A stretch of 64,000 nt of DNA from an uncultured Pseudomonadales bacterium (GTDB lineage Bacteria > Patescibacteriota > Microgenomatia > UBA1400 > PJMF01), in NCBI GenBank assembly GCA_964633875.1, contig CAZWKL010000002.1:23338-87337 (forward strand), written 5' to 3'. The notes under the pieces were generated by a model. It saw only the letters and a program-made list of their open reading frames with translations, ran no database searches and was not told the origin of the DNA. Positions 2,447-51,964 of this stretch are shown piece by piece; the first letter of the stretch is position 1; each line of letters starts with the position of its first letter. The translations under genes and the position numbers were made by a program.

Positions 2447-2546
2447 AACAACTCATTAAGCTCATACAATAATATTAAACTGTTTTTTTTGGGTATGCAA
2501 GTGTTCTTTTGTCATTTTTTGAGTATGTTTTTTGAAGTCGATTTTG

Positions 2547-3515: not shown

Positions 3516-3545
3516 TTTGTTCTAGACATTTTGTACGTTTTGTAC

Positions 3546-7620: not shown

Positions 7621-7692
7621 TTGCGCCAACAAACCAACGCAATTCACGCCATTTCCGTCGGTCGACCAACGCAATTCACGCTATTTGCGTTG
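7621..7692. repeat. Two direct copies of CCAACGCAATTCACGC (7634..7649 and 7666..7681, period 32) plus an inverted partner TTGCGTTG (7684..7692) and AATTGCG (7618..7624), forming a candidate operator array
   Basis: Seen directly in the sequence ttaacgctaattgcgccaacaaaccaacgcaattcacgccatttccgtcggtcgaccaacgcaattcacgctatttgcgttgattcag. It lies 100-170 nt upstream of the AbiEi-like gene start. Confidence 0.4.
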
Positions 7693-7791
7693 ATTCAGTG
7701 CCATTTTCAACAATTTCAAGGTTGTCCAAAAAGCATAATTAATATAAAATTTGAACTACAAGTATGTCTGAAGCCTACCTACAGTTCAAAT

Positions 7792-8373
7792 ATGCAAAAT
7801 AAAATCCTCATTGAGCTTCATAAACAGCCACAAACAGTTTTTACTCTCACAGAAATTTCTTTGTTATTCCCAGGCATATCCTACACAAATATCAAAGACA
7901 GGATGTCTTATCTTACTCGTCGGGGAGCAATTGCCAGACTGAGGAAAGGCGTGTACGCCAAGGAAAATTACAACTCCCAAGAATTAGCCAACAAGCTTTA
8001 TACGCCTTCATATATTAGTTTAGAAACGGTGCTCCAACAGGCAGGGGTGATTTTTCAATACTACGAGCAGATTACTTCAGTTTCCTATCTTTCAAGAACG
8101 GTGCAGGTTTCTGGACATATACTCGACTACAAAAAGATTAAAGAAGAGGTGCTTACCAACAGAGCAGGGATTGTGACAAAAAATAATGTAAATATAGCCA
8201 CGCCGGAGCGGGCTTTTCTGGATGCAATCTATTTGTACAGTAATTACCATGTTGATAATCTAAGCTCTCTTAACTGGAAAAAAATTAATGAATTTATGGG
8301 CTTGTATGTCAACAAGTCCTTAAATCGTCGGGTGGCCGATTACTATCAGATTTATCAGGAAAATAATGCTTGA
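7792..8373 (+). CDS. AbiEi-family (type IV TA antitoxin-like) winged-HTH protein, orphan
   Basis: MQNKILIELHKQPQTVFTLTEISLLFPGISYTNIKDRMSYLTRRGAIARLRKGVYAKEN then YTPSYISLETVLQQAGVIFQY. This matches the AbiEi N-terminal wHTH pattern (..RGxY.. and SYISLESAL). No adjacent AbiEii NTase. The region is AT-rich. Confidence 0.6.
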   Translation: MQNKILIELHKQPQTVFTLTEISLLFPGISYTNIKDRMSYLTRRGAIARLRKGVYAKENYNSQELANKLYTPSYISLETVLQQAGVIFQYYEQITSVSYLSRTVQVSGHILDYKKIKEEVLTNRAGIVTKNNVNIATPERAFLDAIYLYSNYHVDNLSSLNWKKINEFMGLYVNKSLNRRVADYYQIYQENNA

Positions 8374-8429: not shown

Positions 8430-9059
8430 ATGTTCGAAAAAACGACCCTTCATCAAATTATTTTTCAGAGGTTGAGAACCAATCGGGTGAAGATTTTGGC
8501 GCTGGTGATTTTTTTGGCGGGCAGTGGAGTGTCCGGCTTTGGTTTGGCTGCGCTGGGGGAGACTGGCGCCGCCGGGTATGAGTTGCAGCCGGTGATCACC
8601 GAATGCACTCAGACAGTTGGCGCCGGCAGCTTGAAAGTGGATGCCGGCGGCGCCATCAAAAACCCCGGCCTTTACACTCTCGATGAAGGCTCCCGGATTG
8701 GCGACGTCATCAAGGCAGCGGGAGGTTTACACCCGGATGCCGATGGCGGTTACATTGCCAGTCAGCTCAACGCCGCCAAGCCGGTCAAAGACGGAGACAA
8801 AATCTACATTCCTTATTTCCAAGAACAGCAGTCGGCGGCGGAAGCAGAGGCCTCATCAGACCAACCGCCGGGCAACAGCAAGCTTATTTCCATCAATCAA
8901 GCCACCGAGAAACAGCTGATGGAGTTACCGCAGATCGGCGCCAAACGGGCTGCGGATATTGTGGCTGGCCGTCCTTATCAATCAATCGAAGAGTTGGTGG
9001 AAATGAGCGTGCTCACTCAAGGTATTTTTGATGGGATTGAAGAGCTGATTAGTCTCTAA
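8430..9059 (+). CDS. comEA: Competence protein ComEA (TM anchor, SLBB domain and helix-hairpin-helix DNA-binding domain)
   Basis: N-terminal TM. GAIKNPGLYTLDEGSRIGDVIKAAGG (SLBB domain). C-terminal INQATEKQLMELPQIGAKRAADIVAGRPYQSIEEL (tandem HhH). Confidence 0.8.
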   Translation: MFEKTTLHQIIFQRLRTNRVKILALVIFLAGSGVSGFGLAALGETGAAGYELQPVITECTQTVGAGSLKVDAGGAIKNPGLYTLDEGSRIGDVIKAAGGLHPDADGGYIASQLNAAKPVKDGDKIYIPYFQEQQSAAEAEASSDQPPGNSKLISINQATEKQLMELPQIGAKRAADIVAGRPYQSIEELVEMSVLTQGIFDGIEELISL

Positions 9060-9164: not shown

Positions 9165-10592
9165 TTGGTCATTATTCGCCGATATTTAGATGTCTTTATA
9201 GTAAAGCAAAATAATATGAATTTTAGCTCTTTAATCACTTTTAAGATATTAATATTAACGCAAATTCTGATAATATTATTGGCTTCGTCTATATATAGTA
9301 GTATGGGGGGAACTAAATTGGGGCGGAGAAGTCCTAGTTGGGCTGTTTTTGCCCTTAAGAACGGCAACGGAGCGAATGAAGATTTACTTGGGGAAATATT
9401 TCAATTACCTCTGGAGCGGTTTACTTTGTTCTTACACAAAAATTACTCGATTAGCACCAGACTTTTACCCCTTGCTAACGGTGTTTTAACAGAAAATATA
9501 TTGAACTATCGGGAAAAGTTGGCAATTACCAGACAAGCCAGTTCGGTAAATAGTGGGATACGCTTTTTGTCCCAGGCTATCACCTCAGGCGAAGAAACTC
9601 TCTTTCATTTCAAGCAACTCGGTATAGCTCAAACCAGATCATTCTTGGGGAAGCCGGCGAGCAATTTTTATGCCCAGCTAGTTTTTGGCAAGTTGGCTGA
9701 AGCGGATAATAAACTGCAGCCTTTATTTGCACTTACAGGGATGCAATATGTTTTGGTTGTTTCCGGCTTTCATTTGAATTTGCTCATCAGAACTGTGACA
9801 GCCAGCTTACAATCCCGCGTCGCCAATTGGCAAGTGGCATTTTTGGCAATAGCGGTGGCAATGGCGTATCACGTGGTTGTGGGTTACTCACCGTCGCTTT
9901 TTCGCGCGGCGGTAATGTCGTGTGCGGCCATCGCGGCGCGCTACGTTTTTTTTCGTCAGCACCGCGCCAGCTACTTTTTCGTGCTGATGATAGTAGTATT
10001 ATGCTTGATGTATAGGGAAAAAATCGAGAACGTATCTTTCCAGCTTTCAGCGGCAGCCACCGCCGGCATTATCTATCTAATGCCTTTTTTTACTCGAGTA
10101 GACAGTGTTATGGCTTCGATTGAAAGAGCGGAAATTAGCGGCGGCTCACTGCGTGGCAGTTTGCTGGCTAAGTATTTTGCTTTAACCAAAGAAAGTTTTT
10201 GGATCAGTGTCAGTGTTAATTTGGCTCTTTTGCCTTTATTACTGTATTACTTTGGTGAAGTCAACTTAGTATCCATTGGTATATCAAGCCTTTTCTTCTG
10301 GATGGCCTCGTTGTTGGTGGCTGGTTCCTGGCTTTTGTTGGCGCTGGCGGCAGCCGCCAGCGCCAATAATTTGCTCCATCAACTGCTTCTACCAGGCAGA
10401 GAGCTTGCTTATTACTTCATGGACTTGGTGGAGCTCATTCTGGGATCGTTTGCCAAATTGCCATTGATCGTGGCCGCGGAAAAATTTGAGCCAATTTATA
10501 TATTTTTGTGGTGGAGTGTGTTAGTAGGGTACGTAGTGATTAGGTCGCAAATCGCGGCGCGAAAAAGAGGATACCAAAGGCTAGCGCTATGA
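9165..10592 (+). CDS. comEC: ComEC/Rec2 membrane channel part (competence domain). The N-terminal DUF4131/OB region appears reduced.
   Basis: LFALTGMQYVLVVSGFHLNLLIRTV is the ComEC competence-domain motif (SGxH). Multiple TM helices follow. The stop overlaps the start of the next gene (ATGA). Confidence 0.75.
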   Translation: MVIIRRYLDVFIVKQNNMNFSSLITFKILILTQILIILLASSIYSSMGGTKLGRRSPSWAVFALKNGNGANEDLLGEIFQLPLERFTLFLHKNYSISTRLLPLANGVLTENILNYREKLAITRQASSVNSGIRFLSQAITSGEETLFHFKQLGIAQTRSFLGKPASNFYAQLVFGKLAEADNKLQPLFALTGMQYVLVVSGFHLNLLIRTVTASLQSRVANWQVAFLAIAVAMAYHVVVGYSPSLFRAAVMSCAAIAARYVFFRQHRASYFFVLMIVVLCLMYREKIENVSFQLSAAATAGIIYLMPFFTRVDSVMASIERAEISGGSLRGSLLAKYFALTKESFWISVSVNLALLPLLLYYFGEVNLVSIGISSLFFWMASLLVAGSWLLLALAAAASANNLLHQLLLPGRELAYYFMDLVELILGSFAKLPLIVAAEKFEPIYIFLWWSVLVGYVVIRSQIAARKRGYQRLAL

Positions 10593-11515
10593 AAAAAAGG
10601 CTGATTTTGGGCATTTTAGCGGTCTTGCTAATTGCGCCTATATATCAACTAATTTCCCAGTGGCCTGATAATTACCTCAGAATCACTTTTTGTGACGTGG
10701 GGCAAGGTGATGCTATTTTGCTTACTTACCAATTCTCGCAGGTGCTGATTGATGGCGGTCCCAACGATCAAGTTTTAACTTGCCTCCAAGACAGGATGCC
10801 ATTTTGGGATAACACGCTAGATCTGGTAGTAGCCACGCACCCGGACGCCGATCACATTGTCGGCCTGACCAGCGTCTTGCAGCGGTATCAGGTAGAGCTA
10901 ATTTTGACTGAAATATCGGGCAAAAATACCAAGGAAGCTGAAGCTTTTTATCATCAGGTCACGACCGCGGTCGAAAATGGCGCTCTGCTCATCCTGCCTA
11001 GGCAAGCTCAACAGCTTATAATAGCGCAAAAACTGGCCTTCGAAATTTTGTGGCCACTCGAGGAAAGTACTGAAATTATAGGGCCTAATTTTCAACCGAC
11101 CGAAACAATATTATCGGATAAAAAGATGATAAAAAGGTTAGAAAACGGTGAAAAAACTGTTAAAAATGACCGATCTATCGTGCTAAATATGCAATTTGGG
11201 GATTTTAAGGTATTCTTGCCTGGTGACCTCGAGAGAAAGGGTGAACAAGCACTACTCGAGATGGGCTTGATAAACGAAGTGAATATGCTAAAAGCGCCGC
11301 ATCACGGGTCAAAAACGAGTACTACACCTGGAATTGCTGCCAAACTCAGACCCGAAATTACGGTCATTAGCAGCGGCAAAAATAACCAATATGGCCACCC
11401 CGCACCAGAGGTAATTGATACTTTAATAGCAATTGGTTCGCGAATTCTCAGAACTGATGAACTGGGAACCATCACTTTTGTCTCGGACGGCCGGCATTAT
11501 TGGCTCGAGGAATAA
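10589..11515 (+). CDS. comEC: ComEC C-terminal metallo-beta-lactamase domain as a separate ORF with its own N-terminal TM helix
   Basis: MKKRLILGILAVLLIAPIY (TM), then ITFCDVGQGDAILL, HPDADHIVGL and APHHGSKTS (MBL-fold motifs of the ComEC nuclease domain). Confidence 0.8.
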   Translation: MKKRLILGILAVLLIAPIYQLISQWPDNYLRITFCDVGQGDAILLTYQFSQVLIDGGPNDQVLTCLQDRMPFWDNTLDLVVATHPDADHIVGLTSVLQRYQVELILTEISGKNTKEAEAFYHQVTTAVENGALLILPRQAQQLIIAQKLAFEILWPLEESTEIIGPNFQPTETILSDKKMIKRLENGEKTVKNDRSIVLNMQFGDFKVFLPGDLERKGEQALLEMGLINEVNMLKAPHHGSKTSTTPGIAAKLRPEITVISSGKNNQYGHPAPEVIDTLIAIGSRILRTDELGTITFVSDGRHYWLEE

Positions 11516-16821: not shown

Positions 16822-16918
16822 GTGGCTGGCTGCTAGCTTTGGCAGCGTCTTTTCCAGCAGGGATATTGTACCAGGATTGATTTCAATAGCGTAGGGGTTG
16901 GGAGAGGTAATTGTAAAA

Positions 16919-16934
16919 ACACACAACCGTGTGT
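16919..16934 (+). promoter_or_regulatory. Inverted-repeat operator ACACAC-AACC-GTGTGT overlapping a TACAAT -10 element upstream of the MazE-like gene
   Basis: Perfect 6-bp inverted repeat with a 4-nt spacer 15 nt upstream of the antitoxin ATG. This is the typical autoregulated TA promoter layout. Confidence 0.4.
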
Positions 16935-16948
16935 ACAATTTCAACTAT

Positions 16949-17245
16949 ATGAACACCAAAAAGCTACGGTATTTTCAAGATTTGGCTGCTAGTCTTCAAT
17001 TTGGTAACGGTAAAGCCAACAGAAGGGTGCAATTGAAAATGCCGGCCGAAGTGGTGGAGCAGCTTGACGAGCTATTTCCCGGCATTGACCGCAGCCGGTT
17101 GCTGACTCAGTTGGCTGTCGAGGCCATCAACCAGCAACTTAGATTTGCCGACAGAGCGGTATTAAGAGATTTAATTGCTGATGAGCAGTCAAGTCTGGAT
17201 GAGATGCTCCAATATCTGGAAGAGAGGGATGCCGGCAATGTTTGA
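16949..17245 (+). CDS. Antitoxin of a MazE/PemI-like type II TA module (ribbon-helix-helix-like)
   Basis: VQLKMPAEVVEQLDELFPGIDRSRLLTQLAVEAI. Overlaps the start of the downstream PemK/MazF toxin. Start chosen at the internal ATG 16949. Confidence 0.6.
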   Translation: MNTKKLRYFQDLAASLQFGNGKANRRVQLKMPAEVVEQLDELFPGIDRSRLLTQLAVEAINQQLRFADRAVLRDLIADEQSSLDEMLQYLEERDAGNV

Positions 17246-17588
17246 CAGCGCTCGTCCTCAACCAGGAGATATTTATCTGGTCAGGTTTCATCCAGGTTAT
17301 GGAGCTGAGTTCAAAAGATACCGGCCGGCAGTGGTAATGGCCGCCAACCACATGGATCAGCGCTTCGTTTTGATCGCTCCTTTCACCACTCAGACGAAAA
17401 TTTATCAGCCAGAAACAGAGATTCTCATTCGAGTTAATCCGGCGCTGGAACAGGACTCACTTTTACTAGCTTGGTATCTGCAAACAATTGACATTAACAG
17501 GTTGGAAAAAAAGCTTGGCCGGCTCAGCAGCACGCAGATGCGGCTGGTAAAAAAGGCCACTAGCCACTACTTCAACTCAATTGCATAA
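17229..17588 (+). CDS. PemK/MazF-family endoribonuclease toxin
   Basis: MPAMFDSARPQPGDIYLVRFHPGYGAEFKRYRPAVVMAANHMDQRFVLIAPFTTQ matches the PemK/MazF fold signature. Confidence 0.8.
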   Translation: MPAMFDSARPQPGDIYLVRFHPGYGAEFKRYRPAVVMAANHMDQRFVLIAPFTTQTKIYQPETEILIRVNPALEQDSLLLAWYLQTIDINRLEKKLGRLSSTQMRLVKKATSHYFNSIA

Positions 17589-18913
17589 AGATTAGCCGGC
17601 GTGTCCGGACTAAACGAAGTTTTGATCAACAATCTATTGCCGTCAGGCCAGGGATAAATAAAGGAATGTTCAAATGGGCCAGAGTAGAGAGTGGTCTTGT
17701 TGGTGGCGTCGTAACCCATGATGTTCACCCCGCCATCTTCCACAAACAGCAGGTGCAGCGAGTCAGGATACCACTGGAAAGTGTTGGTAAAAAGCGGGGT
17801 GTGATAAACCTTAAAATTCCTGGCTGTGACCGCGGCAGCAGTGGCCTGTAAAGAAGTGAAAGCGCTGGCGGAGGCGGTCAGCAGAGGAGACCGGGGGTCA
17901 TGCAAGTCGGTGGCCAGCAGGTATTTGGTATTGATTTCCGCTTCGGCGCTGGCCTCTTCTCCTACTCTAAAATTCTTATCTTCCTCACGGTCATAAATAT
18001 AAATCCCGCCTGGAACAAGAGCTCTTTCTTCTGGCTGAGTGTTGGTGGCCGGCAGAGCTGGCACCAGTTCGTCCGCCAGCGTCAGCTCCTCGGTAGCAGT
18101 GTAAAGCAGCCGTTTTTTGTCCGGAGAAATATAAACATTTTTGGCGCTGGCAGTGGCGATACTAATAATTTCCGGCGGAAACTGAGCCAAAAACTGCCTT
18201 TCTCTGATGTACATTTCCTGTTCCCATTCAGACAGAATTTGCTGGCGCTGGAAAACCACATCCGGCAGAGTATCGAGGTCGCTTTGGCGGCCGATGGGCA
18301 GAATCACTTGCCTGTCATTGCTCAGCACCATCACCTCACTACTGTCAGGAGACCAAATAAACTCGGCCGTTGAGAGCTCAAAATCTTCCGAATCATTACT
18401 AATTTGTCTGGGGCCTTGTGAGAAAGAGAGTGGCGAACTGTTGAGTTCAAACAAGTAAAGTCCGTTTTTTCTTTGGGCTGAAGCTGAAGCGGTGTAAAAA
18501 ATCAGCTTTTGTCCATCCGGTGAAGGGGTAATATTTTCCACGCCGGTAAAAGTGAGGGTAGTTAAACTGGGGGCAACGGGAAAAAGTTTGGCATTGGTTT
18601 GGGCTACTAATTCTTGCTCAACTAACATCATTTTTTGCCAGGTGTTGTAGCCATCGCGCTTGATTTCTACCAAATACTCACCCGGAACCAGATAAAGAGT
18701 ATCGTCAGTAGCTGTGATGAGCTTGCCATCAATATAAACTTCAGCGCCGGTGGGGAAAGAATTCGCGGCCAGCAAGCCGGTGCCATTGACAAAACCTTGA
18801 TCAGTGACGCGGTAGCCGCCTTTGGCATAGTGAATCGCCAAAAAAGTGCCGACGATGACTACCAATAATGAAAGAACGGCATACACTACGCGCGGCTTGA
18901 ACCAAGATTTCAT
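17567..18913 (-). CDS. Membrane-anchored PEGA-domain protein followed by a TolB-like beta-propeller domain
   Basis: Start set at MKSWFKPRVVYAVLSLLVVIVGTFLAIHY (TM). PEGA domain PTGAEVYIDGKLITATDDTLYLVPGEYLVEIKRDGYNTW. Repeated WSPDSSEV, YISPDKKRLLYTA and QWYPDSLHLLFV blades. Confidence 0.7.
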   Translation of the reverse strand: MKSWFKPRVVYAVLSLLVVIVGTFLAIHYAKGGYRVTDQGFVNGTGLLAANSFPTGAEVYIDGKLITATDDTLYLVPGEYLVEIKRDGYNTWQKMMLVEQELVAQTNAKLFPVAPSLTTLTFTGVENITPSPDGQKLIFYTASASAQRKNGLYLFELNSSPLSFSQGPRQISNDSEDFELSTAEFIWSPDSSEVMVLSNDRQVILPIGRQSDLDTLPDVVFQRQQILSEWEQEMYIRERQFLAQFPPEIISIATASAKNVYISPDKKRLLYTATEELTLADELVPALPATNTQPEERALVPGGIYIYDREEDKNFRVGEEASAEAEINTKYLLATDLHDPRSPLLTASASAFTSLQATAAAVTARNFKVYHTPLFTNTFQWYPDSLHLLFVEDGGVNIMGYDATNKTTLYSGPFEHSFIYPWPDGNRLLIKTSFSPDTPANLYAIELK

Positions 18914-18941
18914 AGGTTTAGTATAGCATGCTATATTAGGG

Positions 18942-19970
18942 GTGATGAAGATACCTTTTATTTCCCAAATCGTGCGTTTTGTCGGGATTGATTTGGGTTC
19001 TAGCCAGGTGAGAATTTGGACAGACCGGTCCGGTTTTGCCATTGATGAGCCGGCGCTGATTGCTTTTGATGCCAAAACCAAAAGGATTTTAGCGGTCGGG
19101 TCGGAGGCGGCAGAAATGCGCGGCCGAGTCAGTAAAAATGTGGTGGTGGAGCAGCCTATTCAGGATGGGAAAATTTATGATTTGGAAACTACCAGAGCGC
19201 TGCTGCGGGTATTTTTGCAGAAAGTTTTAAGCTCCACCAACTTGATTAGTCCGGTTTATATGTGCAGTGTGCCCGCCAAGAGCAGTGAGGCGGATTTGCA
19301 GGCCGTCACGCGGCTGATGTACAACCTGGGCGCGCGGGAAGTTTACACTATTTCCAGCCCGCTGGCGGCCAGTATTGGCGCCGATGTGCCAATTGCCGAT
19401 GCTTCCGGCTGCTTTATTCTTCACTTGGGTGCTGATGTAGTTGAGGGGGCGGTGATTTCGCTTGGCAGCATGGTGCATTACGAAAGCACACATTACGCTG
19501 GCAATTTTCTCAGCAAAAGATTGCAGTATTTAATGAAAAAAGAGTTCGCCCTGGATATTAGCCTGCAAACTGCGGAAGAAATGAAGCGCCGGGTAGTTTC
19601 TGCCTACGGATTGAAGGAAAGAAAGATGTTGGTAACGGGGAAGAGCGCTCATGACGGCAGTCCCAAGGAAATCAGTGTTACCGCTGCCGATGTGGCGCCT
19701 GAGTTGCTTAAGTTGCTCGAAAAGTATGAAAAAGTGCTGCGCCAACTGTTGTCCACTATTCCGCCGGAACTAACGGTGGACGTGATCGATAAAGGCTTGC
19801 TGCTTGCTGGCGGCCTGGCCAATATTGACGGCGTCAGTCAGTATTTTGTCGAAAAAATGGGCATTCCGGTTTCGGTTGTGGATAATCCCGAGCAGGTGGT
19901 GATCAAGGGGACGAGCATAGCGCTGGAGCACCTGGATTTGTTTAAGGAAAGTTTGGGGTATCAGAGTTAA
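18942..19970 (+). CDS. Divergent MreB/actin-like ATPase (paralog 1)
   Basis: VGIDLGSSQVRIW (phosphate-1 motif). FILHLGADVVEGAVISLG (phosphate-2 motif). LLLAGGLANIDGVSQYF (adenosine motif). Confidence 0.7.
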   Translation: MMKIPFISQIVRFVGIDLGSSQVRIWTDRSGFAIDEPALIAFDAKTKRILAVGSEAAEMRGRVSKNVVVEQPIQDGKIYDLETTRALLRVFLQKVLSSTNLISPVYMCSVPAKSSEADLQAVTRLMYNLGAREVYTISSPLAASIGADVPIADASGCFILHLGADVVEGAVISLGSMVHYESTHYAGNFLSKRLQYLMKKEFALDISLQTAEEMKRRVVSAYGLKERKMLVTGKSAHDGSPKEISVTAADVAPELLKLLEKYEKVLRQLLSTIPPELTVDVIDKGLLLAGGLANIDGVSQYFVEKMGIPVSVVDNPEQVVIKGTSIALEHLDLFKESLGYQS

Positions 19971-20133
19971 GGTTTGTTTTGTCTACGGAGGCAGCTTGTT
20001 CTTTAAGATAGGACTCTGCTGTTTTGCTGATAATAAATTTGATGGTCTTGGGTAAAGAATAGCCAAATTGTCGTCCGTAGCTAGACAGAATAGCGGTTTC
20101 TTCATTGGTTAGTGTCAGCTGTACTTTATTCAT
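19942..20133 (-). CDS. Small hypothetical protein (63 aa), possible RHH-like
   Basis: MNKVQLTLTNEETAILSSYGRQFGYSLPKTIKFI. Overlaps the mreB-like 3' end by 29 nt. Weak call. Confidence 0.25.
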   Translation of the reverse strand: MNKVQLTLTNEETAILSSYGRQFGYSLPKTIKFIISKTAESYLKEQAASVDKTNLNSDTPNFP

Positions 20134-20181
20134 AGTGTTCCCATAGTAGCAACAAAGTAGTTTGAAGTCAATATATTGTAA

Positions 20182-21588
20182 CTACTTTTTAACAAGCGCC
20201 CTCACCGCTGCAGTAAACTGATTGCCTCTGTCTTCGTAGTTTTTGAAAGTGCCAAAACTGGCGCTGGCCGGACTAAGCAAGACCACCCAGCCATTTCTGG
20301 CAAATTCGGCGGCCGCGCTCACCGCTTCCTCCATCGACAAAACCTCTTCCTTGATAAGATTGGGATTTTTTATCTCATTGGCTAGTCTGGAACCGGTGGG
20401 GTTGAAGTAAAGCAGCATCCGGACATCGCTTTCATCAATAGTGTGAGCCAAAGCGGAAAAGTCTTGTTGGCGCTCGTGGCCGCCGGCAATCAAAGCCATT
20501 GGCCGGCCCTCATAGCTGTTGATGGCGGCAATAGCAGCTTCAGGCGTGGTGGAAAGCGAGTCATTAACAAAAGTCACGCCTTTAACTTCCGCCACCTCCT
20601 CCAGGCGGTGAGCCAGCGGCTGAAAACTTTGCAGTCCTGCGCGAATTGCAGCTGTTTCCGCCCCGAGCTGTTTGGCGATCACCACCGCCGGCAGGCTGTT
20701 GAGCAGGTTGTGCTCGCCTTTAAGAGGCAGCTCGCTGATATCGGCGATTTTTTCTTGCTGATAATAGATGGCATTGTCCTGAATGTAGGCCAGCGGGTCG
20801 GGGTGGTCAGCTTGGTTGGCGGTTTTTTTACCAAAAGGCAGCTTTTTAGCTTTGCTGTCATCGGCAATCTGCCGCGGCAGCTCAAAAAGCGGGTTATAAA
20901 CCACAAAATCATCTTTATGCTGAAACTGGACAATTCTGGCTTTGGCGGCGGTGTAACTGGCAAAATCAGGATAGTAGTCGAGATGCTCAGGAGTGATATT
21001 AAGAATGACGGCAAAATGAGGACTACTGCGAAGATTAAGCAGCTGGTGCGAAGAAAGCTCCAGCACGTAGTAGTCGGCCCTGATTTCCTGGTGGAGCAGA
21101 TCAAGCGGCGCCTGGCCGATGTTGCCCGCCAGGACGGTTTTGCAGCCAGCCTTGGTTAGCACGTGATTAATCAAAGCGCTGGTAGTGCTTTTGCCTTTAG
21201 TGCCGGTCACGCCAATGATAGTCTGATGTTCTCGGACAATTTGCAGGAAAAGGTTGGTGTTGGAGTTGAAATCAAGGTTTTTTTGTTCGGCTTTTTTGAT
21301 CAGCGGATGAGTGATGGGGATGCCCGGCGTCTTAAACATTACGCCGCTGCCGATCTCGTAATTGGTGATGGTATCGAGAAAAGTGTCGGCAGTAGTAATG
21401 GTGGTATACGGGTTGCTAGCGGCCTGTTGCCAGTGTTGATCCAGGTCTTGAGGTGGTTTGTCGTCGATGAGGATGAGTTTTTTTTCAGGAAAAATTTTCC
21501 GGAGATAATTGTAGGTGGAAAAACCTTCCAAACCGAGGCCGAAGATATAAATTTGCCTGTTTTCCAGTTTTGCTAGCGGGTTTTTCAT
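20182..21588 (-). CDS. murD: UDP-N-acetylmuramoylalanine--D-glutamate ligase
   Basis: Mur ligase P-loop IGVTGTKGKSTTSALINHVL. N-terminal Rossmann region IYIFGLGLEGFSTYNYL. C-terminal FVNDSLSTTPEA. Confidence 0.85.
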   Translation of the reverse strand: MKNPLAKLENRQIYIFGLGLEGFSTYNYLRKIFPEKKLILIDDKPPQDLDQHWQQAASNPYTTITTADTFLDTITNYEIGSGVMFKTPGIPITHPLIKKAEQKNLDFNSNTNLFLQIVREHQTIIGVTGTKGKSTTSALINHVLTKAGCKTVLAGNIGQAPLDLLHQEIRADYYVLELSSHQLLNLRSSPHFAVILNITPEHLDYYPDFASYTAAKARIVQFQHKDDFVVYNPLFELPRQIADDSKAKKLPFGKKTANQADHPDPLAYIQDNAIYYQQEKIADISELPLKGEHNLLNSLPAVVIAKQLGAETAAIRAGLQSFQPLAHRLEEVAEVKGVTFVNDSLSTTPEAAIAAINSYEGRPMALIAGGHERQQDFSALAHTIDESDVRMLLYFNPTGSRLANEIKNPNLIKEEVLSMEEAVSAAAEFARNGWVVLLSPASASFGTFKNYEDRGNQFTAAVRALVKK

Positions 21589-21610
21589 TGAGTTGCTTCC
21601 TTTACTTCGC

Positions 21611-23008
21611 CTATTTCGCTGCTTTCAGCCAGTTTTCCCAGGTTTGAGAAGGGATGAGATGCTCGTTATTCCAGGCTTGAAGGATTGTTTGAGCACGTTC
21701 GTCTAAATTTGCTTCTTGGGAAAGAACTTGTTTGTACACTTGTTGCAATAATTGTTGGCTAGAATCCGGTTGTGTCTGCTGCCATTTTTGCCAGCAAAGG
21801 TGGAAAGCGGCCAGAGATTCTTCGTGGGTGCCCACGCAGTCGAAAGGTTTGTGTTCACTGGCGCCTACTAGCTCGAGGGCGATGGTCAGCAGCTCGGGTT
21901 TATCTAACAAGTTCTCACCAAAATACCCGGTGAGTTCAGAAAGGTTTACAAATGGATAAAGAATTATAAAAGCAAAGAGGCATTTTGAGCACTGACCACA
22001 CCAACTGTTGGTTTTTTGGCCAACGTTGCAGCTCCTGAAAATGGGGTGGTAGGTTTTCATGGTTGAGAAAATTTTGGCTATCTGTAGCTCAAAAAGCGGC
22101 CTCATGTAAGAAAAGTAGCGAGGCGAGTTGGCAGGGTAGAACTGGCTGATATAGGCGCTGAAAGCTTTTTCGAAAGCAAAAGTTTTGGAGTACTGGTGGT
22201 TGATTTCCTTGCCGAGATATTCGACGTTGCCCTCGTTGGAACTGCGCTCGTTTGAGACCGGAATAAAGTGGTAGTCGTGCAGTCTGGCCGCCAGCAGGCT
22301 AGTGAAGGCGAAGAGGGCAGAGATCGGCACATGTCCATTGAGGTAGCCCTGGGAGTTAAGTGAGAGTAGGAGCGGATCCAGTTCTCTGGTAACGGTGATG
22401 GTTTTGAGTTGGCTGGCAGCGGCAATATCTCGGGCAGCTTGAGTGGGGTTGATCAACAAGCAGCTTAAGTTGGCAGGATCGAGATTTTGCCTGAACAGCT
22501 CCAGCGTCACGGCCGAGTCTTTGCCTCCGCCGAGGGGAATCAGGATTCTGGGGTTGGCAGGTTCTGGCAGGTTGAGTTGAGACGCGGTTGGCTCAGGTGT
22601 TTCAGGGAGAGCAGTCCGGATGGAGACGAAATCAGGCGCGGTGAACTCAATTTGGTTGATGTAAAAGTACTCACCCATGCCTTGAATCAGCAGTTGGTGC
22701 CACCAGGAAGTTTGTTCTGGAGTTAGCGGCTGGGCCTCGATGATAATTTCGGGGGCAGCGGTCAGCTTCCAATAACTCAACATCTCTGCCAGGCCAAGGG
22801 AAAAGGCATGCAGATTTAGCTCGACTTCACTGATTTGCCGGAACTGCTGTTCGGAGACATTGGGAAAATGCATTGAGGGATGGAAATCAAAGCCCGGCTC
22901 AATGAAGAAATGCCATTGGAGGGTGAGGGTGTTGGCATCCCAATGCCACTCATACTTTTTGTAGAAAAAACGCGGGTGTTGCGACCTCAGTTCAGTTACT
23001 GATTTCAT
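21611..23008 (-). CDS. PP-loop ATP-pyrophosphatase of the QueC/ExsB-like type with about 150-aa N-terminal and about 125-aa C-terminal extensions. Possibly an N-acetyl-sugar amidotransferase-like enzyme.
   Basis: PLGGGKDSAV (PP-loop SGGxDS variant) at about residue 160. FRSCNVGQKTNSWCGQCSKCLF, a QueC-type C...CGxCxxC zinc motif. Total length 465 aa. Confidence 0.6.
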   Translation of the reverse strand: MKSVTELRSQHPRFFYKKYEWHWDANTLTLQWHFFIEPGFDFHPSMHFPNVSEQQFRQISEVELNLHAFSLGLAEMLSYWKLTAAPEIIIEAQPLTPEQTSWWHQLLIQGMGEYFYINQIEFTAPDFVSIRTALPETPEPTASQLNLPEPANPRILIPLGGGKDSAVTLELFRQNLDPANLSCLLINPTQAARDIAAASQLKTITVTRELDPLLLSLNSQGYLNGHVPISALFAFTSLLAARLHDYHFIPVSNERSSNEGNVEYLGKEINHQYSKTFAFEKAFSAYISQFYPANSPRYFSYMRPLFELQIAKIFSTMKTYHPIFRSCNVGQKTNSWCGQCSKCLFAFIILYPFVNLSELTGYFGENLLDKPELLTIALELVGASEHKPFDCVGTHEESLAAFHLCWQKWQQTQPDSSQQLLQQVYKQVLSQEANLDERAQTILQAWNNEHLIPSQTWENWLKAAK

Positions 23009-23416
23009 GGACTTTCATTATAGTGGAAGACGCCAAAAAGTGCATCCGAGTATGATTTTCAGCGAGTTGAAAGGTGTTGAGAAAAAATAGAGCAAAAATC
23101 AACAAATACTCAAGAAATATAGTGTTCAAAAAGGGCAAAAAATGAATAATAAACTGCGAAAATAGCAATTTTTAAGAAAAAAATAGTCTCAATTGCCTTC
23201 GGACAATGTTGGGCTTTGGCCGGAAAACGAATTTTTTACCGCACAAAAACCGAAGAAAATTGCTTTTAGGAAAAGCAAAAGAAAACAGTGTACAATGATA
23301 AAATAGTGGCGGTCCAGTTAGCTCAGAAATTTGGACAAAAATGATTTTACCAGGCTATTGCTTTGGTTTTTCTTCAAAAATGCCTGGTTTGTAACAGTGA
23401 GGTAATAAGAGAGAAA

Positions 23417-24202
23417 ATGATTGATAAGACAGTGAAAATATTCGATTTAGCCATTTTTAGCAAAAGCAGATTGGAACTGCTAAAAATTTTGCAAAATCAC
23501 TTGCGGCAGCAAAATGGGCTGCTGGTGATTTTTACGCCAAATCCCGAGCAAATTATGCTCGCGCGCAGGGACAAGACATTTGCTTCATCTTTGGGTTTTG
23601 CCGATATTTTGGTCCCCGATGGCTTTGGTTTGGTTTTGGCGGCCAAAATGAAGGCTCTTTTTCTGGCTCAAAAGGCGCTGGAGGAGCGAATTGCCGGCAT
23701 TGATTTAGCTGAAGATTTGCTCAAAATCGCGCGGGAGCAAAAATTGCCGGCGCTGATTTTGGGCGGCCGTGGCTATCAGGGCCGGGAGGTTTCAGGGAAA
23801 TTGGATATTGGTGGCTGGCCGGTTGAGTGGCATCAAGCTTACCAAGATGTCAGGCAACCTCTGGAGGCAGAGGAAAAAGCGGTAGTGGCTTTGATCAAAA
23901 ACCTGCGGCCGAGTATTGTTTTTGTGGCTTTTGGCGCGCCGCATCAGGAAAAATGGGTGGTAGAGCACCGGGAACTGCTAGAAAAATCGGGAGTGCTGCT
24001 GGTGCAAGTGGTGGGCGGCGCTTTCGATGTCATCCTCGGCAAGTTCCGCCGGGCACCCGGCTGGATGAGGCGACTCGGCTTAGAGTGGCTGTTTAGACTA
24101 TTTCAGCAGCCCTGGCGGCTCAAGCGGCAGCTGCAGCTGATTCCGTTTATGTTTTTAACTTTTAAACAGGTGCTGGTGAAGCAAAGGCGGGGGAGGAAAT
24201 GA
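23417..24202 (+). CDS. WecB/TagA/CpsF-family glycosyltransferase (N-acetylmannosaminyltransferase-like)
   Basis: VIFTPNPEQIMLARRD and FADILVPDGFGLVLAAKM match WecG/TagA signatures. Start at the internal ATG 23417. Confidence 0.75.
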   Translation: MIDKTVKIFDLAIFSKSRLELLKILQNHLRQQNGLLVIFTPNPEQIMLARRDKTFASSLGFADILVPDGFGLVLAAKMKALFLAQKALEERIAGIDLAEDLLKIAREQKLPALILGGRGYQGREVSGKLDIGGWPVEWHQAYQDVRQPLEAEEKAVVALIKNLRPSIVFVAFGAPHQEKWVVEHRELLEKSGVLLVQVVGGAFDVILGKFRRAPGWMRRLGLEWLFRLFQQPWRLKRQLQLIPFMFLTFKQVLVKQRRGRK

Positions 24203-24240: not shown

Positions 24241-24531
24241 CTACTCATCTCCTGGTGTAATGCCCAACAACCAGAGAACGGACTCTTTTTTGTAGCGCCG
24301 GTCACCCCGAGAGTTAATCCGGATCGCAGGCAGCTTGCCTCTCTTGCCCCACCGCTTAATCGTCAGGGGGGAAACTCTGAGCAAATCTGCTACTTCGCGG
24401 ACTGTCAGCAGGTCAGGCAGATTATTGATATCGAGCCTACTGGCGTCGTCAGCTCGGCCAGTCCTTTTATCTTCCGCAACTTGCCCATTAGGGTCAATAT
24501 TGCTGATGGTGGTCATAGCAGGTTCGCTCAT
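24241..24531 (-). CDS. Excisionase/MerR-type helix-turn-helix DNA-binding protein (HTH_17-like)
   Basis: LTVREVADLLRVSPLTIKRWGKRGKLPAIRINSRGDRRYKKESV. Confidence 0.65.
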   Translation of the reverse strand: MSEPAMTTISNIDPNGQVAEDKRTGRADDASRLDINNLPDLLTVREVADLLRVSPLTIKRWGKRGKLPAIRINSRGDRRYKKESVLWLLGITPGDE

Positions 24532-26127: not shown

Positions 26128-26562
26128 TCAAAAGGTCAAAGCTGCTTTTTGATAAAGCTGTCTGAGATTACGATCGAGAGTTAATAATTTGGCTTTTTGT
26201 TCAAGGGCTAATTGAGCATAACTGGAATCGTAGTAGCTGCAGTTGTGTTCCAGAGAAAAACGCAACGTCTGTTCGTAGTTGGGTGAAAGATAGTTAATAG
26301 GGAATGACATAAAAGTTTGGAAGATTGTTTTTGCTCCTCGCTGATCAAGTCTGCCGCGCAAAACACAGGTTCGTAAAATGTTGCCAACTTCAAAAATAAG
26401 TAGTTTTGGAGCCAGAAAATTTATGGCAGGATTTTCTAGAAGTTTGATTAGCTCTGGTCCACGAGTACTAGCCGATAGTTTGCGTTCGTCTGGCAAAAGC
26501 ACGCTGGCTACCACGAATGAATCAACCACGTAGGCAGAGTTGGCTTTATGCTGACCGGCCAT
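26128..26562 (-). CDS. vapC: PIN-domain toxin (VapC family)
   Basis: YVVDSFVVASVLLPDE (N-terminal acidic Asp) and YDSSYAQLALEQKAKLLTLDRNL (C-terminal PIN motif). Confidence 0.8.
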   Translation of the reverse strand: MAGQHKANSAYVVDSFVVASVLLPDERKLSASTRGPELIKLLENPAINFLAPKLLIFEVGNILRTCVLRGRLDQRGAKTIFQTFMSFPINYLSPNYEQTLRFSLEHNCSYYDSSYAQLALEQKAKLLTLDRNLRQLYQKAALTF

Positions 26563-26806
26563 AGTCTCTCAATTCTTGATAATCCAGTTGCTGATTTGAT
26601 TTTTGGATCAAAGACCAATTTTGTTGGATTTTTTGCATTAATTTAGTTCGTTCAGCTTGAGCTTGTTCAAGTTTGGCCTTCCGATAAACCTTGGCGATAG
26701 CAGCGCGAATGAGCTTGCCTTTAGTTACTCCTTGTTGATGGGCAAGTTGAGTGAGTAGTCGATTGTCGTCTTCAGATAGTAGCAAATTGGTTCTGTGGGT
26801 TAGCAT
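26546..26806 (-). CDS. vapB: Ribbon-helix-helix antitoxin (VapB/CopG-like)
   Basis: NLLLSEDDNRLLTQLAHQQGVTKGKLIRAAI. 17-nt overlap with vapC. Confidence 0.7.
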   Translation of the reverse strand: MLTHRTNLLLSEDDNRLLTQLAHQQGVTKGKLIRAAIAKVYRKAKLEQAQAERTKLMQKIQQNWSLIQKSNQQLDYQELRDYGRSA

Positions 26807-34041: not shown

Positions 34042-35367
34042 TCACATCTCTTTTCGCGCCAGCTTCACTACTTTGACAATTTCTTTGGCGCCATTCAAGA
34101 AAAGCGGATCAAGTTTGTGCGCGTTGAGCATGGCTTGCTCGATCCAGGACTGAGATTTCCCCTGAGAAGAGCGGAGAACTGCCAGCTGAGAAACAATGTG
34201 GGCCACGTCCGCCTGCCTGGAAATTGCTTTTTGCTCAAAAATAACCCTGATTCGCTCTTCCCATTCGCCCCATTCAGCCAGTGACAGGATAAAGCTGCCG
34301 GAGGCGGCCGCGTCGTAGGCCATGTCGCCGGAAGGTTTGGAAAGGAAGCCGTGCGCCCAAGGAAAGCCGTACTTGATGAGCATTTCGTTGGCGTCGACAA
34401 TTTGCGGATGGTAGAGAACCCGAAACCTAGCCTTTTTGTCCGCCAGTTTGCCGGGCGCTATTCTGGCTCTGCCGGCAAGAAAAACCGCTTCTTCATAAAT
34501 ATCCCGATGGGTGCCGGCGTAGACCAACAGCCGGAGTTGTGGGTCGCGCTTTCTTAATTCCGGCAGCAGTTGCTCGAGGAGGTTGAGGATTTCTTGCTTG
34601 TTGGTGCCGAGGCCGCCGGTGGTGAGGGCGAGATTGAGCGGGCCGCTGCGCCACGGGTTTTTTTTGGTTTTGGCGGCGATGACACGCGGATCCACCGGCG
34701 GCCCAGTCACAATAATTCTGTCCGGCTCGGCTTCAATCCCTAACTTGGCTGCCTTTTCCAAAAATTCCGTCTTAGTATTTTCATCAAAAGTACAAAACCA
34801 AAGATTGCTTTTATCCGCGTTAGTCACATACTCTGTTCTCACATGCGGATCAGTAATCACTTGCACCACTTTTTTGCCTTGTTCAGCCAAAATATTACCG
34901 GCGGCAATATGAAAAGAGAGAATTGGCCGGTGAATATTTTCCGTTAAGTAAAGCAGCGGCGGCGTAATACTACTCAGAATTGGCAACTTTTGCCTGCCAA
35001 AATTATCAATAAAATCCTTGACGGTTTTCAAAATCGAGTAGCGGGCAATGGTTTTGCCAACCGCTTGGGTGAACTCAATCGAAAACCAATTCTTTTTAGA
35101 AACGTAATTGGTGGGTTCCACAATCCAGGCCCGATCCGGCCGCAGCCGGTCCCCCCAAATCTGAGTCGCCACCCCCAGCGCCATCGAGTAATGCGCCCGC
35201 GAAAACACCACGTCGGGAATGGTATCATCATCCGGCAAACCATGCATCCGCTTGAGGTCCTCCTTGTAAGTGGCCGAAACAGTCACAATCGGAATCTCGG
35301 TTTGCTCAAGCAGGCGCTTGTCTTCTCGATAAGTTTTGACTAAATGAGGGTCGAATAATTCAGGCAT
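34042..35367 (-). CDS. Putative GT-B glycosyltransferase (MGDG-synthase/MurG-like C-terminal half)
   Basis: NLALTTGGLGTNKQEIL and FLSKPSGDMAYDAAASGSFIL resemble the C-domain nucleotide-sugar binding motifs of GT28-type enzymes. Assignment tentative. Confidence 0.5.
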   Translation of the reverse strand: MPELFDPHLVKTYREDKRLLEQTEIPIVTVSATYKEDLKRMHGLPDDDTIPDVVFSRAHYSMALGVATQIWGDRLRPDRAWIVEPTNYVSKKNWFSIEFTQAVGKTIARYSILKTVKDFIDNFGRQKLPILSSITPPLLYLTENIHRPILSFHIAAGNILAEQGKKVVQVITDPHVRTEYVTNADKSNLWFCTFDENTKTEFLEKAAKLGIEAEPDRIIVTGPPVDPRVIAAKTKKNPWRSGPLNLALTTGGLGTNKQEILNLLEQLLPELRKRDPQLRLLVYAGTHRDIYEEAVFLAGRARIAPGKLADKKARFRVLYHPQIVDANEMLIKYGFPWAHGFLSKPSGDMAYDAAASGSFILSLAEWGEWEERIRVIFEQKAISRQADVAHIVSQLAVLRSSQGKSQSWIEQAMLNAHKLDPLFLNGAKEIVKVVKLARKEM

Positions 35368-36819: not shown

Positions 36820-37118
36820 GCAAACAAAGAAAAGACCCATTCGCTAATTTAATTTTAGACCAAGAAGAGCAATTACTGGAAGAAGCTCTTGAAAGAGGAG
36901 AATACGAAGAGGATCCTCAATTTGAAGAAACTAAAAAAATGCTTGAAGAAGCTGCCGCTCGTTATTTGGAGCTGAACACTACCAAGCCTATCACTATTAG
37001 AATTAAGCAACTGGACTTGATTCGGATTAAAGCTAAAGCAGCAGCCAAAAATATGCCCTATCAAACCTTGATCAGCTCTCTAATTCATCAATATGCTAAG
37101 AGCCAGTCTACTCGCTAA
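36816..37118 (+). CDS. brnA: BrnA-family antitoxin
   Basis: ITIRIKQLDLIRIKAKAAAKNMPYQTLISSLIHQYA. ATGA overlap with brnT. Confidence 0.7.
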   Translation: MSKQRKDPFANLILDQEEQLLEEALERGEYEEDPQFEETKKMLEEAAARYLELNTTKPITIRIKQLDLIRIKAKAAAKNMPYQTLISSLIHQYAKSQSTR

Positions 37119-39459
37119 TCCCGAGCAAATTTTCTGGCGCCTTAATCACCACAGGAATATCTCTAAACTCCTCAGGTTCGTGACCGCGTGAGAAAGTAAC
37201 ATTGCGGTTGCAGTGCGGATTATCAGCGTGATGCGCTTGATTGATGGCAGCTAAGCTCAGTCCACCGCTTGCTTGTGCAAATTCACGCACCCAGTTTTCG
37301 AGCGCTTGGCCCAAACCCATCCGGTGAACCATCTCCTGAAAAGCTTCATCAGCCGCGTCGGAAAAATTTCCCGGCGCACCATCCGGTTTTAGCGGTACGT
37401 GTTTCAGATGTGGTCTTTGGCGGGCAGGATAAGTCCCTTCAGAGTCTGCAGATTTCAACCAGTCAACCTCAGGTATTTCTCCTGTGCAAGAATTGGCAAA
37501 AAGTTCCAGCGCGATTTTTTCAAAAACAATTTTTATATCCGGAGGAAGTCCAGCTGTTTCCTCAAGGAAAACAACGTTGGCAATGGTAGCAGGAAAGGTC
37601 AGATGGAGTTTGATTTGTGGCTGTTCCAGATCAGGAAATGTATCTGGCCGGTTGACTAAATTAAAAGTAATCAAAAAACCTCCCTGCTGATGATAACGCA
37701 GCTGGGCGGAAGCAATTAATCCGGGTATTTGCGGGTGATCATCCAAATAATACAGATCTCCCGCTTCGGTCAGGCCTTGTTTAAATGACCGCACTATTAA
37801 TCGTCGCAATTGAGCATTCTCTTTGAGTAGATCAAGACCTCGGTTTCTAATTTCTTCCGGCAGCGAATAATCAATCAGTGCCTCCAGCGGTGTTTTTGGC
37901 TGAAAATCCCTATTGGTAAGATAGAGCAGCACTCCCGGATAGTCTTGGATAGTAAACAAAAGCTCTGTACTTTCCATCAGCTCTCTGCGTTTAAAGTTCA
38001 TTTTCTCGTCTTGTGTCAACAGGTTTTCGGCAAAACGAGCCACTTCTTGAGGAGAATTGAGAATGCCTACTTGTTCATCTACGATGAGGTAGCCACTCAA
38101 TCCTCTGATGGCAAAGGAGTGAATGTGCCAGCGGCGGCCGGTAGCTTCTTCCTTTTCTACTTTTTCGCGATTAACTGTTTTGCGGATCATGTCAACAAAG
38201 ACGCCGGAACGCACCAGTTTTCTAAGCGGTTTCAATTCTTCAGGAAATTCCAGGCTGTATTTGTAAGGAAATTCACCAACAATGCTCCAATCTATAGGCG
38301 CCATGAACAGAGTCGATGCGGGGGTTTCAGCACTTTGCTGCAGCCGCCCTTCACCGTCAGGCGTTTTAGCCAGATGCTTGCCTTTTTGGTAATTAAAAAT
38401 GTTTTGCAATCTTTCTGAATATGAACCTGATCCAATTGCCACTCTCATCAGTGCGGGCGGGACTGGCTGTTTACTTTGTTTTCTGATCTGGTTCGCGCTG
38501 AGATTATGGCTTTCTTGAATTTCTGAATTATTCGCTTGTGCCTGCAAGTTATGTTTAAGCAAAGCCAGTATTTCTGGTACTTTTTCTGGTCCAGTGGCCA
38601 ACTCGGGATAAGCTTTAATAATTGAAGCAATAAAGGAAAGTTGCAGTAGATAAGGATCGTAGGCGCGGTTGTTTTTGTTAAATTGCTCCTGTTTGCTGGT
38701 GATCTCAGCCATTAAACTCAAAGCCATATTGGTGTAGGTAGCTATAACATACAGGTCTTCCATTTTTGGGTGAGCGGTATAAGTACCGAGGAACAAGCTT
38801 AGCCAGGGCAGAGAACCAACTGGCGCAACTTTGTTATACTTACCAGTGGAAAGATCAACCGCTGCTTCCGCAAGCGACAAATCATCAAGATTCTCAGCAG
38901 CCAAATAGACAAGTTTTTCAACAGTGACCAAAGCTCTGTGCCAATATTGCTGATCTTGGTCGTTAAAGCGTTTGTCTATCAGGCCGTTTAAGATCAATTC
39001 AGAGGTTTCTTTAAGATTTTTGCCAATTTTATCTGCGGAAAAATGATCAAGTTTGTTGAGAGCTCGCAAAAATGTTTCCAACTCACGCTCATCCCACACA
39101 TGATCGGAGAGTTGTTTCCAGTCATAACCGCGTAGTTGTTTGTTGAGATTTTTTAAAAATGCACTCAGAACTTTGAGTTGCTCAGAGTTGTCCGAGTTTT
39201 TGGCAATAAAAGCGGCATTTTCCACGGCCGAGATGAATTGAAGCAACGCGGCTGGGGAGGATGTGATGCGCTCAATTATTTCTTTGCTGGCGCTATCAAT
39301 ATCTTGAAAAGATTCTGGTAGTCTTGGCAATGGGGTTTCAGTCTCATCAGGGACTGGTTGTTCCGGTGAATCACTAATTGGTTGTTGCTCGGCCGCATTG
39401 CCCAGAGAGGGAAGGGCAGTTGATTGTTCAGACGGATCAGTTTCAATTGAGTTGATCAT
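37108..39459 (-). CDS. Large cytoplasmic protein of unknown function (783 aa), co-oriented directly downstream of the nucleotidyltransferase gene
   Basis: No signal peptide or TM. No motif I can assign. Contains RRWHIH (an Rx4H, HEPN-like spacing) and a His-rich C-terminal segment HHADNPHCNRNVTFSRGHE. 66-nt gap to the upstream NTase gene. Confidence 0.8.
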   Translation of the reverse strand: MINSIETDPSEQSTALPSLGNAAEQQPISDSPEQPVPDETETPLPRLPESFQDIDSASKEIIERITSSPAALLQFISAVENAAFIAKNSDNSEQLKVLSAFLKNLNKQLRGYDWKQLSDHVWDERELETFLRALNKLDHFSADKIGKNLKETSELILNGLIDKRFNDQDQQYWHRALVTVEKLVYLAAENLDDLSLAEAAVDLSTGKYNKVAPVGSLPWLSLFLGTYTAHPKMEDLYVIATYTNMALSLMAEITSKQEQFNKNNRAYDPYLLQLSFIASIIKAYPELATGPEKVPEILALLKHNLQAQANNSEIQESHNLSANQIRKQSKQPVPPALMRVAIGSGSYSERLQNIFNYQKGKHLAKTPDGEGRLQQSAETPASTLFMAPIDWSIVGEFPYKYSLEFPEELKPLRKLVRSGVFVDMIRKTVNREKVEKEEATGRRWHIHSFAIRGLSGYLIVDEQVGILNSPQEVARFAENLLTQDEKMNFKRRELMESTELLFTIQDYPGVLLYLTNRDFQPKTPLEALIDYSLPEEIRNRGLDLLKENAQLRRLIVRSFKQGLTEAGDLYYLDDHPQIPGLIASAQLRYHQQGGFLITFNLVNRPDTFPDLEQPQIKLHLTFPATIANVVFLEETAGLPPDIKIVFEKIALELFANSCTGEIPEVDWLKSADSEGTYPARQRPHLKHVPLKPDGAPGNFSDAADEAFQEMVHRMGLGQALENWVREFAQASGGLSLAAINQAHHADNPHCNRNVTFSRGHEPEEFRDIPVVIKAPENLLGISE

Positions 39460-51935: not shown

Positions 51936-51964
51936 ATCCTTGCCTCATCTTGTATACTTTCGTC

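Follow-up and report, generated by a model that had tools for sequence, protein, structure and literature searches.

A QueC-like PP-loop protein encoded on a Patescibacteria genome fragment is very probably MurL, paired with a MurD2-type ligase

What does a QueC-like protein of twice the usual length do in a bacterium of the Patescibacteria? The question is raised by murL, as we shall call it, an open reading frame (ORF) on the minus strand of a 64,000-nucleotide stretch of DNA (contig CAZWKL010000002.1, positions 23,338 to 87,337, assembly GCA_964633875.1; hereafter the window), deposited under the name of an uncultured Pseudomonadales bacterium and placed by GTDB in the Patescibacteriota. 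The original prediction described a QueC/ExsB-like PP-loop enzyme of 465 residues with unusual N- and C-terminal parts, favoured a role in cell-envelope glycan amidation, mentioned the QatC and Cap9 defence proteins and allowed for a novel function. What it had observed holds, while its interpretation is only partly supported. Translation confirms the 465-residue ORF with its additional parts at both ends; the PP-loop, placed about 160 residues in, is LGGGKDS at residues 159–165; the QueC-type zinc motif, placed about 330 in, consists of C327, C337, C340 and C343; and the roughly 125 extra C-terminal residues are 122 when counted past the last of these cysteines. We suggest that the protein is very probably MurL, the epimerase which, with ATP and in one direction only, serves the alternative D-glutamate (D-Glu) route of peptidoglycan synthesis, and that its gene is co-transcribed with that of the partner ligase MurD2.

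The identification starts from the NCBIfam model NF041275, which stands for MurL, UDP-N-acetyl-alpha-D-muramoyl-L-alanyl-L-glutamate epimerase, and which was built for Xanthomonadales only, with an equivalog cut-off of 700 bits. It is the sole NCBIfam match of the window protein at E ≤ 1 (E = 2e-74, 250.7 bits) and places residues 24–459 on profile positions 18–442 of 447. What came to light is thus a full-length match to a characterised family with the same domain order, and it takes the place of the novel function considered at first. A local Pfam scan of the window protein gave insignificant matches only (DUF6395, E = 0.027; ACP_PD, E = 0.13). An identical protein on the 151.8-kb ENA metagenome contig k141_90337 of ERZ27247346 carries the precomputed Pfam domains PF26299 (MurL_N) and PF26298 (MurL_epimerase_C). 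The search brought up over 7,000 homologues. The best 120 all have both domains, several at 44–48% identity bear the Joint Genome Institute (JGI) name MurL, and where an organism is named it is one of the Patescibacteria (Woesebacteria, Pacebacteria and others). Plasmid records searched by tblastn led to a Xanthomonas sacchari replicon with a murL gene annotated by the Prokaryotic Genome Annotation Pipeline (PGAP); its product scores 836 bits on NF041275, over the cut-off, and aligns with the window protein at 32% identity over 395 residues (E = 1e-59) with every conserved motif kept.

The biochemistry of this family comes from Xanthomonas oryzae, which lacks glutamate racemase. There XOO_1320 (MurD2) joins L-Glu to UDP-N-acetylmuramyl-L-alanine (UDP-MurNAc-L-Ala), and XOO_1319 (MurL) then epimerises the L-Glu product to the D-Glu form; this L-to-D reaction is unidirectional, requires Mg2+ and one ATP and forms AMP (PMC8788868, PMC5808125). 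The reaction, the need for ATP and Mg2+, the stoichiometric AMP and the unidirectionality were demonstrated for X. oryzae and two actinomycetes (PMC8788868, PMC5808125). Adenylation of the alpha-carboxylate by MurL was proposed, but the reviews of 2018 and 2021 call the mechanism unclear and MurL a protein without any known conserved domain (PMC8788868, PMC5808125). The published distribution comprises Xanthomonadales, few Alphaproteobacteria and some rare actinomycetes (PMC8788868). Our literature search returned no paper on MurL structure or mechanism newer than these two Dairi-group reviews and none on MurL in Patescibacteria.

A model of the window MurL, obtained with AlphaFold2 on a 32-sequence alignment (mean pLDDT, the predicted local distance difference test, 94.6; pTM, the predicted template modelling score, 0.93), begins with an N-terminal alpha/beta domain and, at residues ~136–153, a linker of low confidence; a Rossmann-like core then reaches from the PP-loop to the Cys4 motif, and a C-terminal helical domain completes the three parts. 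A fold search ranked QueC and Cap9 nearest to the core; further PP-loop enzymes, among them nitrile synthetase, LarE and NAD+ synthetase, came next. These enzymes act via adenylated intermediates. On a confident model, the MurL core appears to belong with the QueC/Cap9 PP-loop family, which would give a structural rationale for the ATP-to-AMP chemistry; in silico, a conserved PP-loop in a QueC-like fold is consistent with an AMP-forming type of ATP site and with the ATP-to-AMP stoichiometry. Among PDB chains (2026 PDB), a single-sequence search with the window MurL gave no match, and a profile search matched only the PP-loop motif of TtuA (E ~ 1e-3), with no MurL chain detectable by sequence.

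Conservation was followed in the 32 sequences and in 79 homologues from many phyla. The PP-loop LGGGKDS is invariant in the former, nearly invariant in the latter and kept in X. sacchari MurL. G162, D164, H226, H271, K275, the four cysteines C327, C337, C340 and C343 and a further cysteine, C391, are conserved in 79/79, and K163 in 78/79. X. sacchari MurL retains all four Cys4 cysteines, and its C391 motif reads HKPFECVG. C391 is a candidate catalytic residue on the strength of this pattern, and K163, D164, H226, H271, K275 and C391 are the invariant residues that we list as targets for mutation.

The likeness to QueC stands as far as the nearest folds, QueC and Cap9, and the Cys4 motif are concerned, but it does not extend to a QueC sequence model. 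That the protein is a divergent QueC (preQ0 synthase) with extra domains attached is, in our estimate, very unlikely and the least probable explanation of all: no QueC model matched at E ≤ 1 in Pfam or NCBIfam, no queuosine-pathway family was matched by the ORFs scanned in the window, and the extra domains are conserved with Xanthomonas MurL. Hardly better placed is the proposal of a QatC/Cap9-type defence protein which attaches a deazaguanine derivative to a partner protein. The PADLOC scan was empty even at E ≤ 10; QatA, QatB, QatD and CD-NTase neighbours are absent; the flanks are housekeeping genes (MreB, MurD, ribosomal proteins), with murD synteny across phyla. We rejected this candidate on the missing PADLOC match and the housekeeping context, and the defence option of the original prediction falls with it.

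The genomic context is that of cell-wall synthesis. As first noted, a MurD-type ligase gene lies on the same strand as murL and a WecG/TagA-family glycosyltransferase gene diverges from it. The TAG stop of murL is followed by a 22-nucleotide spacer with AAGGA and then by the murD ATG. Between the two genes the minus strand has no terminator-like site, and a promoter and terminator scan of 19900–23500 gave a number of sites not above that in shuffled sequence. The gene-neighbourhood survey that had been proposed for this locus was carried out on the best 80 related loci, taken from one-genome-per-species contigs. In 69/80, murD follows murL downstream on the same strand; in 7 of the remaining 11 the contig stops within about 600 bp of murL, so that the linkage amounts to 69/73 informative loci. 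Four loci (L019, L021, L028 and L048) have several kb downstream of murL yet no murD within reach. The same order, murL and then murD, is found in X. sacchari, and the linkage is that of XOO_1319/XOO_1320.

The other neighbours are WecG/TagA in 7/80 loci, MreB in 6/80 and a PEGA protein in 5/80, all of them in close relatives of the window; the glycosyltransferase is thus an incidental neighbour. This bears on the reading favoured at first, that the protein belongs to the N-acetyl-sugar amidotransferases (PseA/WbpG/TIGR03573 type) and amidates an envelope glycan together with the divergent WecG/TagA enzyme. The TIGR03573 model is unmatched and no association with glycan-synthesis genes is conserved, and we consider glycan amidation effectively refuted and very improbable.

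Does the linked ligase fit MurL? It is recognised by TIGR01087 (348 bits), and the published mutagenesis allows its specificity to be read. Glu197 and Arg358 determine the L-Glu specificity of MurD2, E. coli MurD having Asp182 and Lys348 in their place, and the double mutant E197D/R358K is a D-Glu ligase (PMC8788868); E. coli MurD K319T gains some acceptance of L-Glu (PMC8788868, PMC5808125). We mapped the E. coli MurD numbering onto the ligases from a PDB alignment. The window ligase has Glu, Arg, Leu and Phe at E. coli positions 182, 348, 319 and 416 (its own E201, R373, L345 and F445). X. sacchari MurD2 has Glu, Ile, Arg and Phe at positions 182, 319, 348 and 416 (PEH / NDSI / GGHDR / PSF), and a shift of 9 in its numbering recovers E197 and R358 as published, so that the mapping is validated. 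Among the 69 MurL-linked ligases, position 182 is Glu in 63 and Asp in 6 (E. coli MurD, Asp; S. agalactiae MurD, Thr), position 348 is Arg in 68 (E. coli, Lys; S. agalactiae, Arg) and position 319 holds Leu or Ile in 67, with Lys in none (Lys in both canonical enzymes). K115, N138, H183 and K198, of the ATP site and catalysis, are invariant across the linked ligases. The loss of Lys319 to Leu/Ile is, judging from these alignments, an additional putative marker which sets MurL-linked ligases apart from the two canonical MurDs in the comparison, and in view of the K319T result position 319 looks like a third natural MurD2 marker. We therefore flag the adjacent "murD" as a probable L-glutamate ligase of the MurD2 type, against its standard annotation as a D-glutamate ligase. 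PGAP still labels the Xanthomonas MurD2 a D-glutamate ligase.

The ligase also bears on the rival that comes closest to MurL, namely a MurL-family paralogue with the same alpha-carboxylate adenylation and another acceptor, for example ammonia, which would give iso-glutamine with no epimerisation, an outcome analogous to that of MurT/GatD. The folds nearest to the model include QueC and nitrile synthetase, in which the adenylate leads on to amides and nitriles; the window protein is under the equivalog cut-off; and MurL-like genes without adjacent murD, found on Pseudonocardia plasmids and in 4/73 informative loci, mean that the family may not be uniform in function. However, the partner ligase has the L-Glu-specific residues of MurD2, and an L-Glu-specific ligase without an epimerase would leave no D-Glu in the cell wall, so that different chemistry is disfavoured by the L-Glu-type ligase. 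In addition, all conserved motifs including C391 are common to the window protein and Xanthomonas MurL, and no glutaminase or ammonia-donor gene adjoins murL. We regard such a paralogue as unlikely, although less so than the other rivals.

MurL-like genes annotated as hypothetical are present on three Pseudonocardia plasmids. That of P. alni plasmid pPaSha1 (NZ_CP052772.1, 3959–5359) scores 323 bits on NF041275, under the cut-off of 700. No murD adjoins it, its neighbours being genes for a large WD40-repeat protein and a helix-turn-helix (HTH) protein, and this suggests a MurL-family paralogue with another role.

Several points weigh against MurL as we propose it. The score of 250.7 bits is far under 700, and NCBI's own rule would withhold the name MurL from the window protein; the first 72 residues align poorly with Xanthomonas MurL in BLASTP. 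The adenylation step is a published hypothesis with no demonstrated intermediate (PMC8788868). MurL activity is a prediction for the window protein and for every homologue from Patescibacteria alike. In addition, an active glutamate racemase was reported in Ca. Saccharimonas aalborgensis, of the Saccharibacteria, a Patescibacteria lineage, according to a reference title in PMC11974145. As for other sources of D-Glu in the window itself, neither MurI nor a D-amino-acid aminotransferase was matched among the main ORFs of at least 150 residues scanned in these 64 kb of the 151.8-kb contig (the unscanned ones overlap scanned genes), and 64 kb of genome leaves the absence of either enzyme unproven. 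The window does encode a peptidoglycan-making cell, with genes for a MurF-like ligase, PBP2, MreB twice, MreC and an amidase. Regarding the score, homologues from cultured organisms are also under the cut-off (Minisyncoccus, 272 bits; Pseudobutyrivibrio, 249 bits); in our assessment a value of this size limits automatic naming and would leave the homology unweakened. The prediction of MurL function for the Patescibacteria protein thus rests on homology over the full length, the structure of the operon and the specificity residues of MurD2.

With MurL as the preferred reading, the following mechanism may be proposed. MurD2 would first couple UDP-MurNAc-L-Ala with L-Glu, not D-Glu. MurL would then activate this glutamate, with the PP-loop presumably serving as its ATP site, and the activation would acidify the C-alpha proton, which would be taken off and then returned on the opposite face. 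The invariant C391, H226, H271 and K275 probably include the acid/base catalysts, whereas the Cys4 cluster presumably binds a structural zinc. The terminal "extensions" are family-specific domains, with the probable role of holding the UDP-MurNAc-dipeptide and completing the active site.

The murL–murD2 pair is present in at least 587 species-level genomes. Among the best 80 loci, cultured organisms with it are Minisyncoccus archaeiphilus and Pseudobutyrivibrio xylanivorans DSM 14809, and labels of metagenome-assembled genomes with it include Acidobacteria, Lachnospiraceae (gut), Bacteroidales, Omnitrophota, Rokubacteria and Binatia. This taxonomic spread is far beyond the published distribution, and the case for MurD2 and MurL as narrow-spectrum targets, restricted to Xanthomonas and Stenotrophomonas, becomes weaker. 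Some Patescibacteria-like contigs are labelled Pseudomonadales, Enterobacteriaceae or Vitreimonas, and these labels may be wrong.

Taken together, these observations allow a wider and tentative proposal, which we hold to be possible rather than probable: that MurL derives from the carboxylate-adenylating QueC/Cap9 PP-loop family; that its family-specific C-terminal helical domain supplies the invariant fifth cysteine, C391, as catalytic base or transient-thioester acceptor that makes the C-alpha proton exchangeable; and that MurD2/MurL, not glutamate racemase, usually supplies the wall D-Glu of most Patescibacteria and of many Acidobacteria, Lachnospiraceae and Bacteroidales. If true, the last part would contradict the published view of a drug target confined to few genera and of narrow spectrum. 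For the window itself, the speculative "novel QueC-like enzyme" gives way to a specific, testable housekeeping function. As read from its sequence, murL appears to be an ordinary, under-annotated housekeeping gene and no new kind of enzyme. The residual interest, of modest general value, lies in the QueC/Cap9-like fold of MurL, the very broad distribution of the pathway and the Lys319 to Leu/Ile ligase marker.

Features of the murL–murD2 locus, in coordinates of the window
Feature	Position	Strand	Basis or remark
murL ORF	21611..23008	-	ATG start, 465 residues, TAG stop
MurL_N, N-terminal alpha/beta domain, residues 1–135 (about)	22604..23008	-	AlphaFold2 model
QueC/Cap9-like PP-loop ATP pyrophosphatase core, residues ~154–350	21959..22549	-	AlphaFold2 model
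PP-loop LGGGKDS, presumed ATP alpha/beta-phosphate site	22514..22534	-	Translation
Cys4 motif C327-x9-C337-x2-C340-x2-C343, presumed structural zinc site as in QueC	21980..22030	-	Translation
C-terminal helical domain, residues 351–465, with KP-x-x-C391-VG	21614..21958	-	Model, helices 356–464
C391 codon	21836-21838	-	Invariant cysteine of the KP-x-x-C-VG motif
AAGGA ribosome-binding site for murD2, within the murL–murD2 spacer	21598..21602	-	Sequence read
murD2, MurD-type ligase	20182..21588	-	TIGR01087
L345 codon of the window ligase	20554-20556	-	Position of E. coli K319
WecG/TagA-family glycosyltransferase	23363-24202	divergent from murL	Incidental neighbour, in 7/80 loci

Elsewhere in the window, ComEC/Rec2 seems to be split into two ORFs with a 4-nucleotide overlap, 9165–10592 (+) and 10589–11515 (+), one with the Competence membrane domain and the other with the metallo-beta-lactamase C-terminal part; ComEA (8430–9059) lies just upstream, and DprA is at 57586–58746. 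Of the two MreB paralogues, the first (18942–19970, +) overlaps the start of an opposite-strand PEGA-domain protein (17567–19081), and the second (51950–53014, +) is followed by MreC and PBP2. Toxin–antitoxin-like modules are found among the housekeeping genes at 7621–8373 (+), 16898–17588 (+) and 26128–26806 (-); they comprise an AbiEi-like antitoxin (NCBIfam E = 3.9e-10), a small overlapping ORF pair and an adjacent pair resembling a PIN toxin and its antitoxin, the two pairs being judged by translation alone. A dehydrogenase/epimerase of the NAD-dependent short-chain dehydrogenase/reductase (SDR) type (40443–41414, +) overlaps a Kbl/BioF-like pyridoxal phosphate (PLP) enzyme (41407–42657, +), which scores 343 bits on a glycine C-acetyltransferase model, under the cut-off; the pair is reminiscent of threonine dehydrogenase and Kbl. 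A small ORF of the HTH_17/MerR family with an excisionase-like DNA-binding domain (24241–24531, -) stands between the WecG gene and the genes for ribosomal proteins L7/L12 and L10. Sizeable ORFs with no Pfam match at E ≤ 1e-5 are located at 980–5085 (-), 34042–35367 (-), 37108–39459 (-) and 39526–40353 (-); such ORFs include four consecutive ones at the left end of the window and one protein of 783 residues.

Compared with known systems, the window protein is closest to MurL of X. oryzae. XOO_1319 is alike in length class (451 and 465 residues) and full-length domain order, and the Xanthomonas and window proteins have in common the motifs GGGKDS, LNxQGxxNGHxP, SNExS, NHQxSK, RPLxEL, SCN, WCGxCxKC and KPFxCVG. 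As in Xanthomonas, a MurD2-type ligase gene is directly downstream. On the other hand, identity to X. sacchari MurL is 32% only, with the first ~70 residues divergent, and the host is an uncultured member of the Patescibacteria (candidate phyla radiation, CPR), whereas the published MurL hosts belong to lineages of Proteobacteria or Actinobacteria. The window ligase resembles X. oryzae MurD2 at E197 (Glu), R358 (Arg) and F435 (Phe), and, like X. sacchari MurD2, to which it is 32% identical, it has a hydrophobic residue in place of E. coli K319. It has Ala, not Pro, at P433 of MurD2, a position whose change left the specificity unaltered in the published mutagenesis (PMC8788868). QueC shares with the window protein the PP-loop fold and the C-terminal Cys4 zinc motif; however, QueC is a single domain of ~220 residues, while the window protein has two further domains totalling about 270 residues and no detectable sequence-model match to QueC, Cap9 or QatC. 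The predicted chemistry differs as well: epimerisation and hydrolysis on a UDP-muramyl dipeptide would be expected for the window MurL, in contrast to the amide or nitrile formation or protein modification of QueC, Cap9 and QatC.
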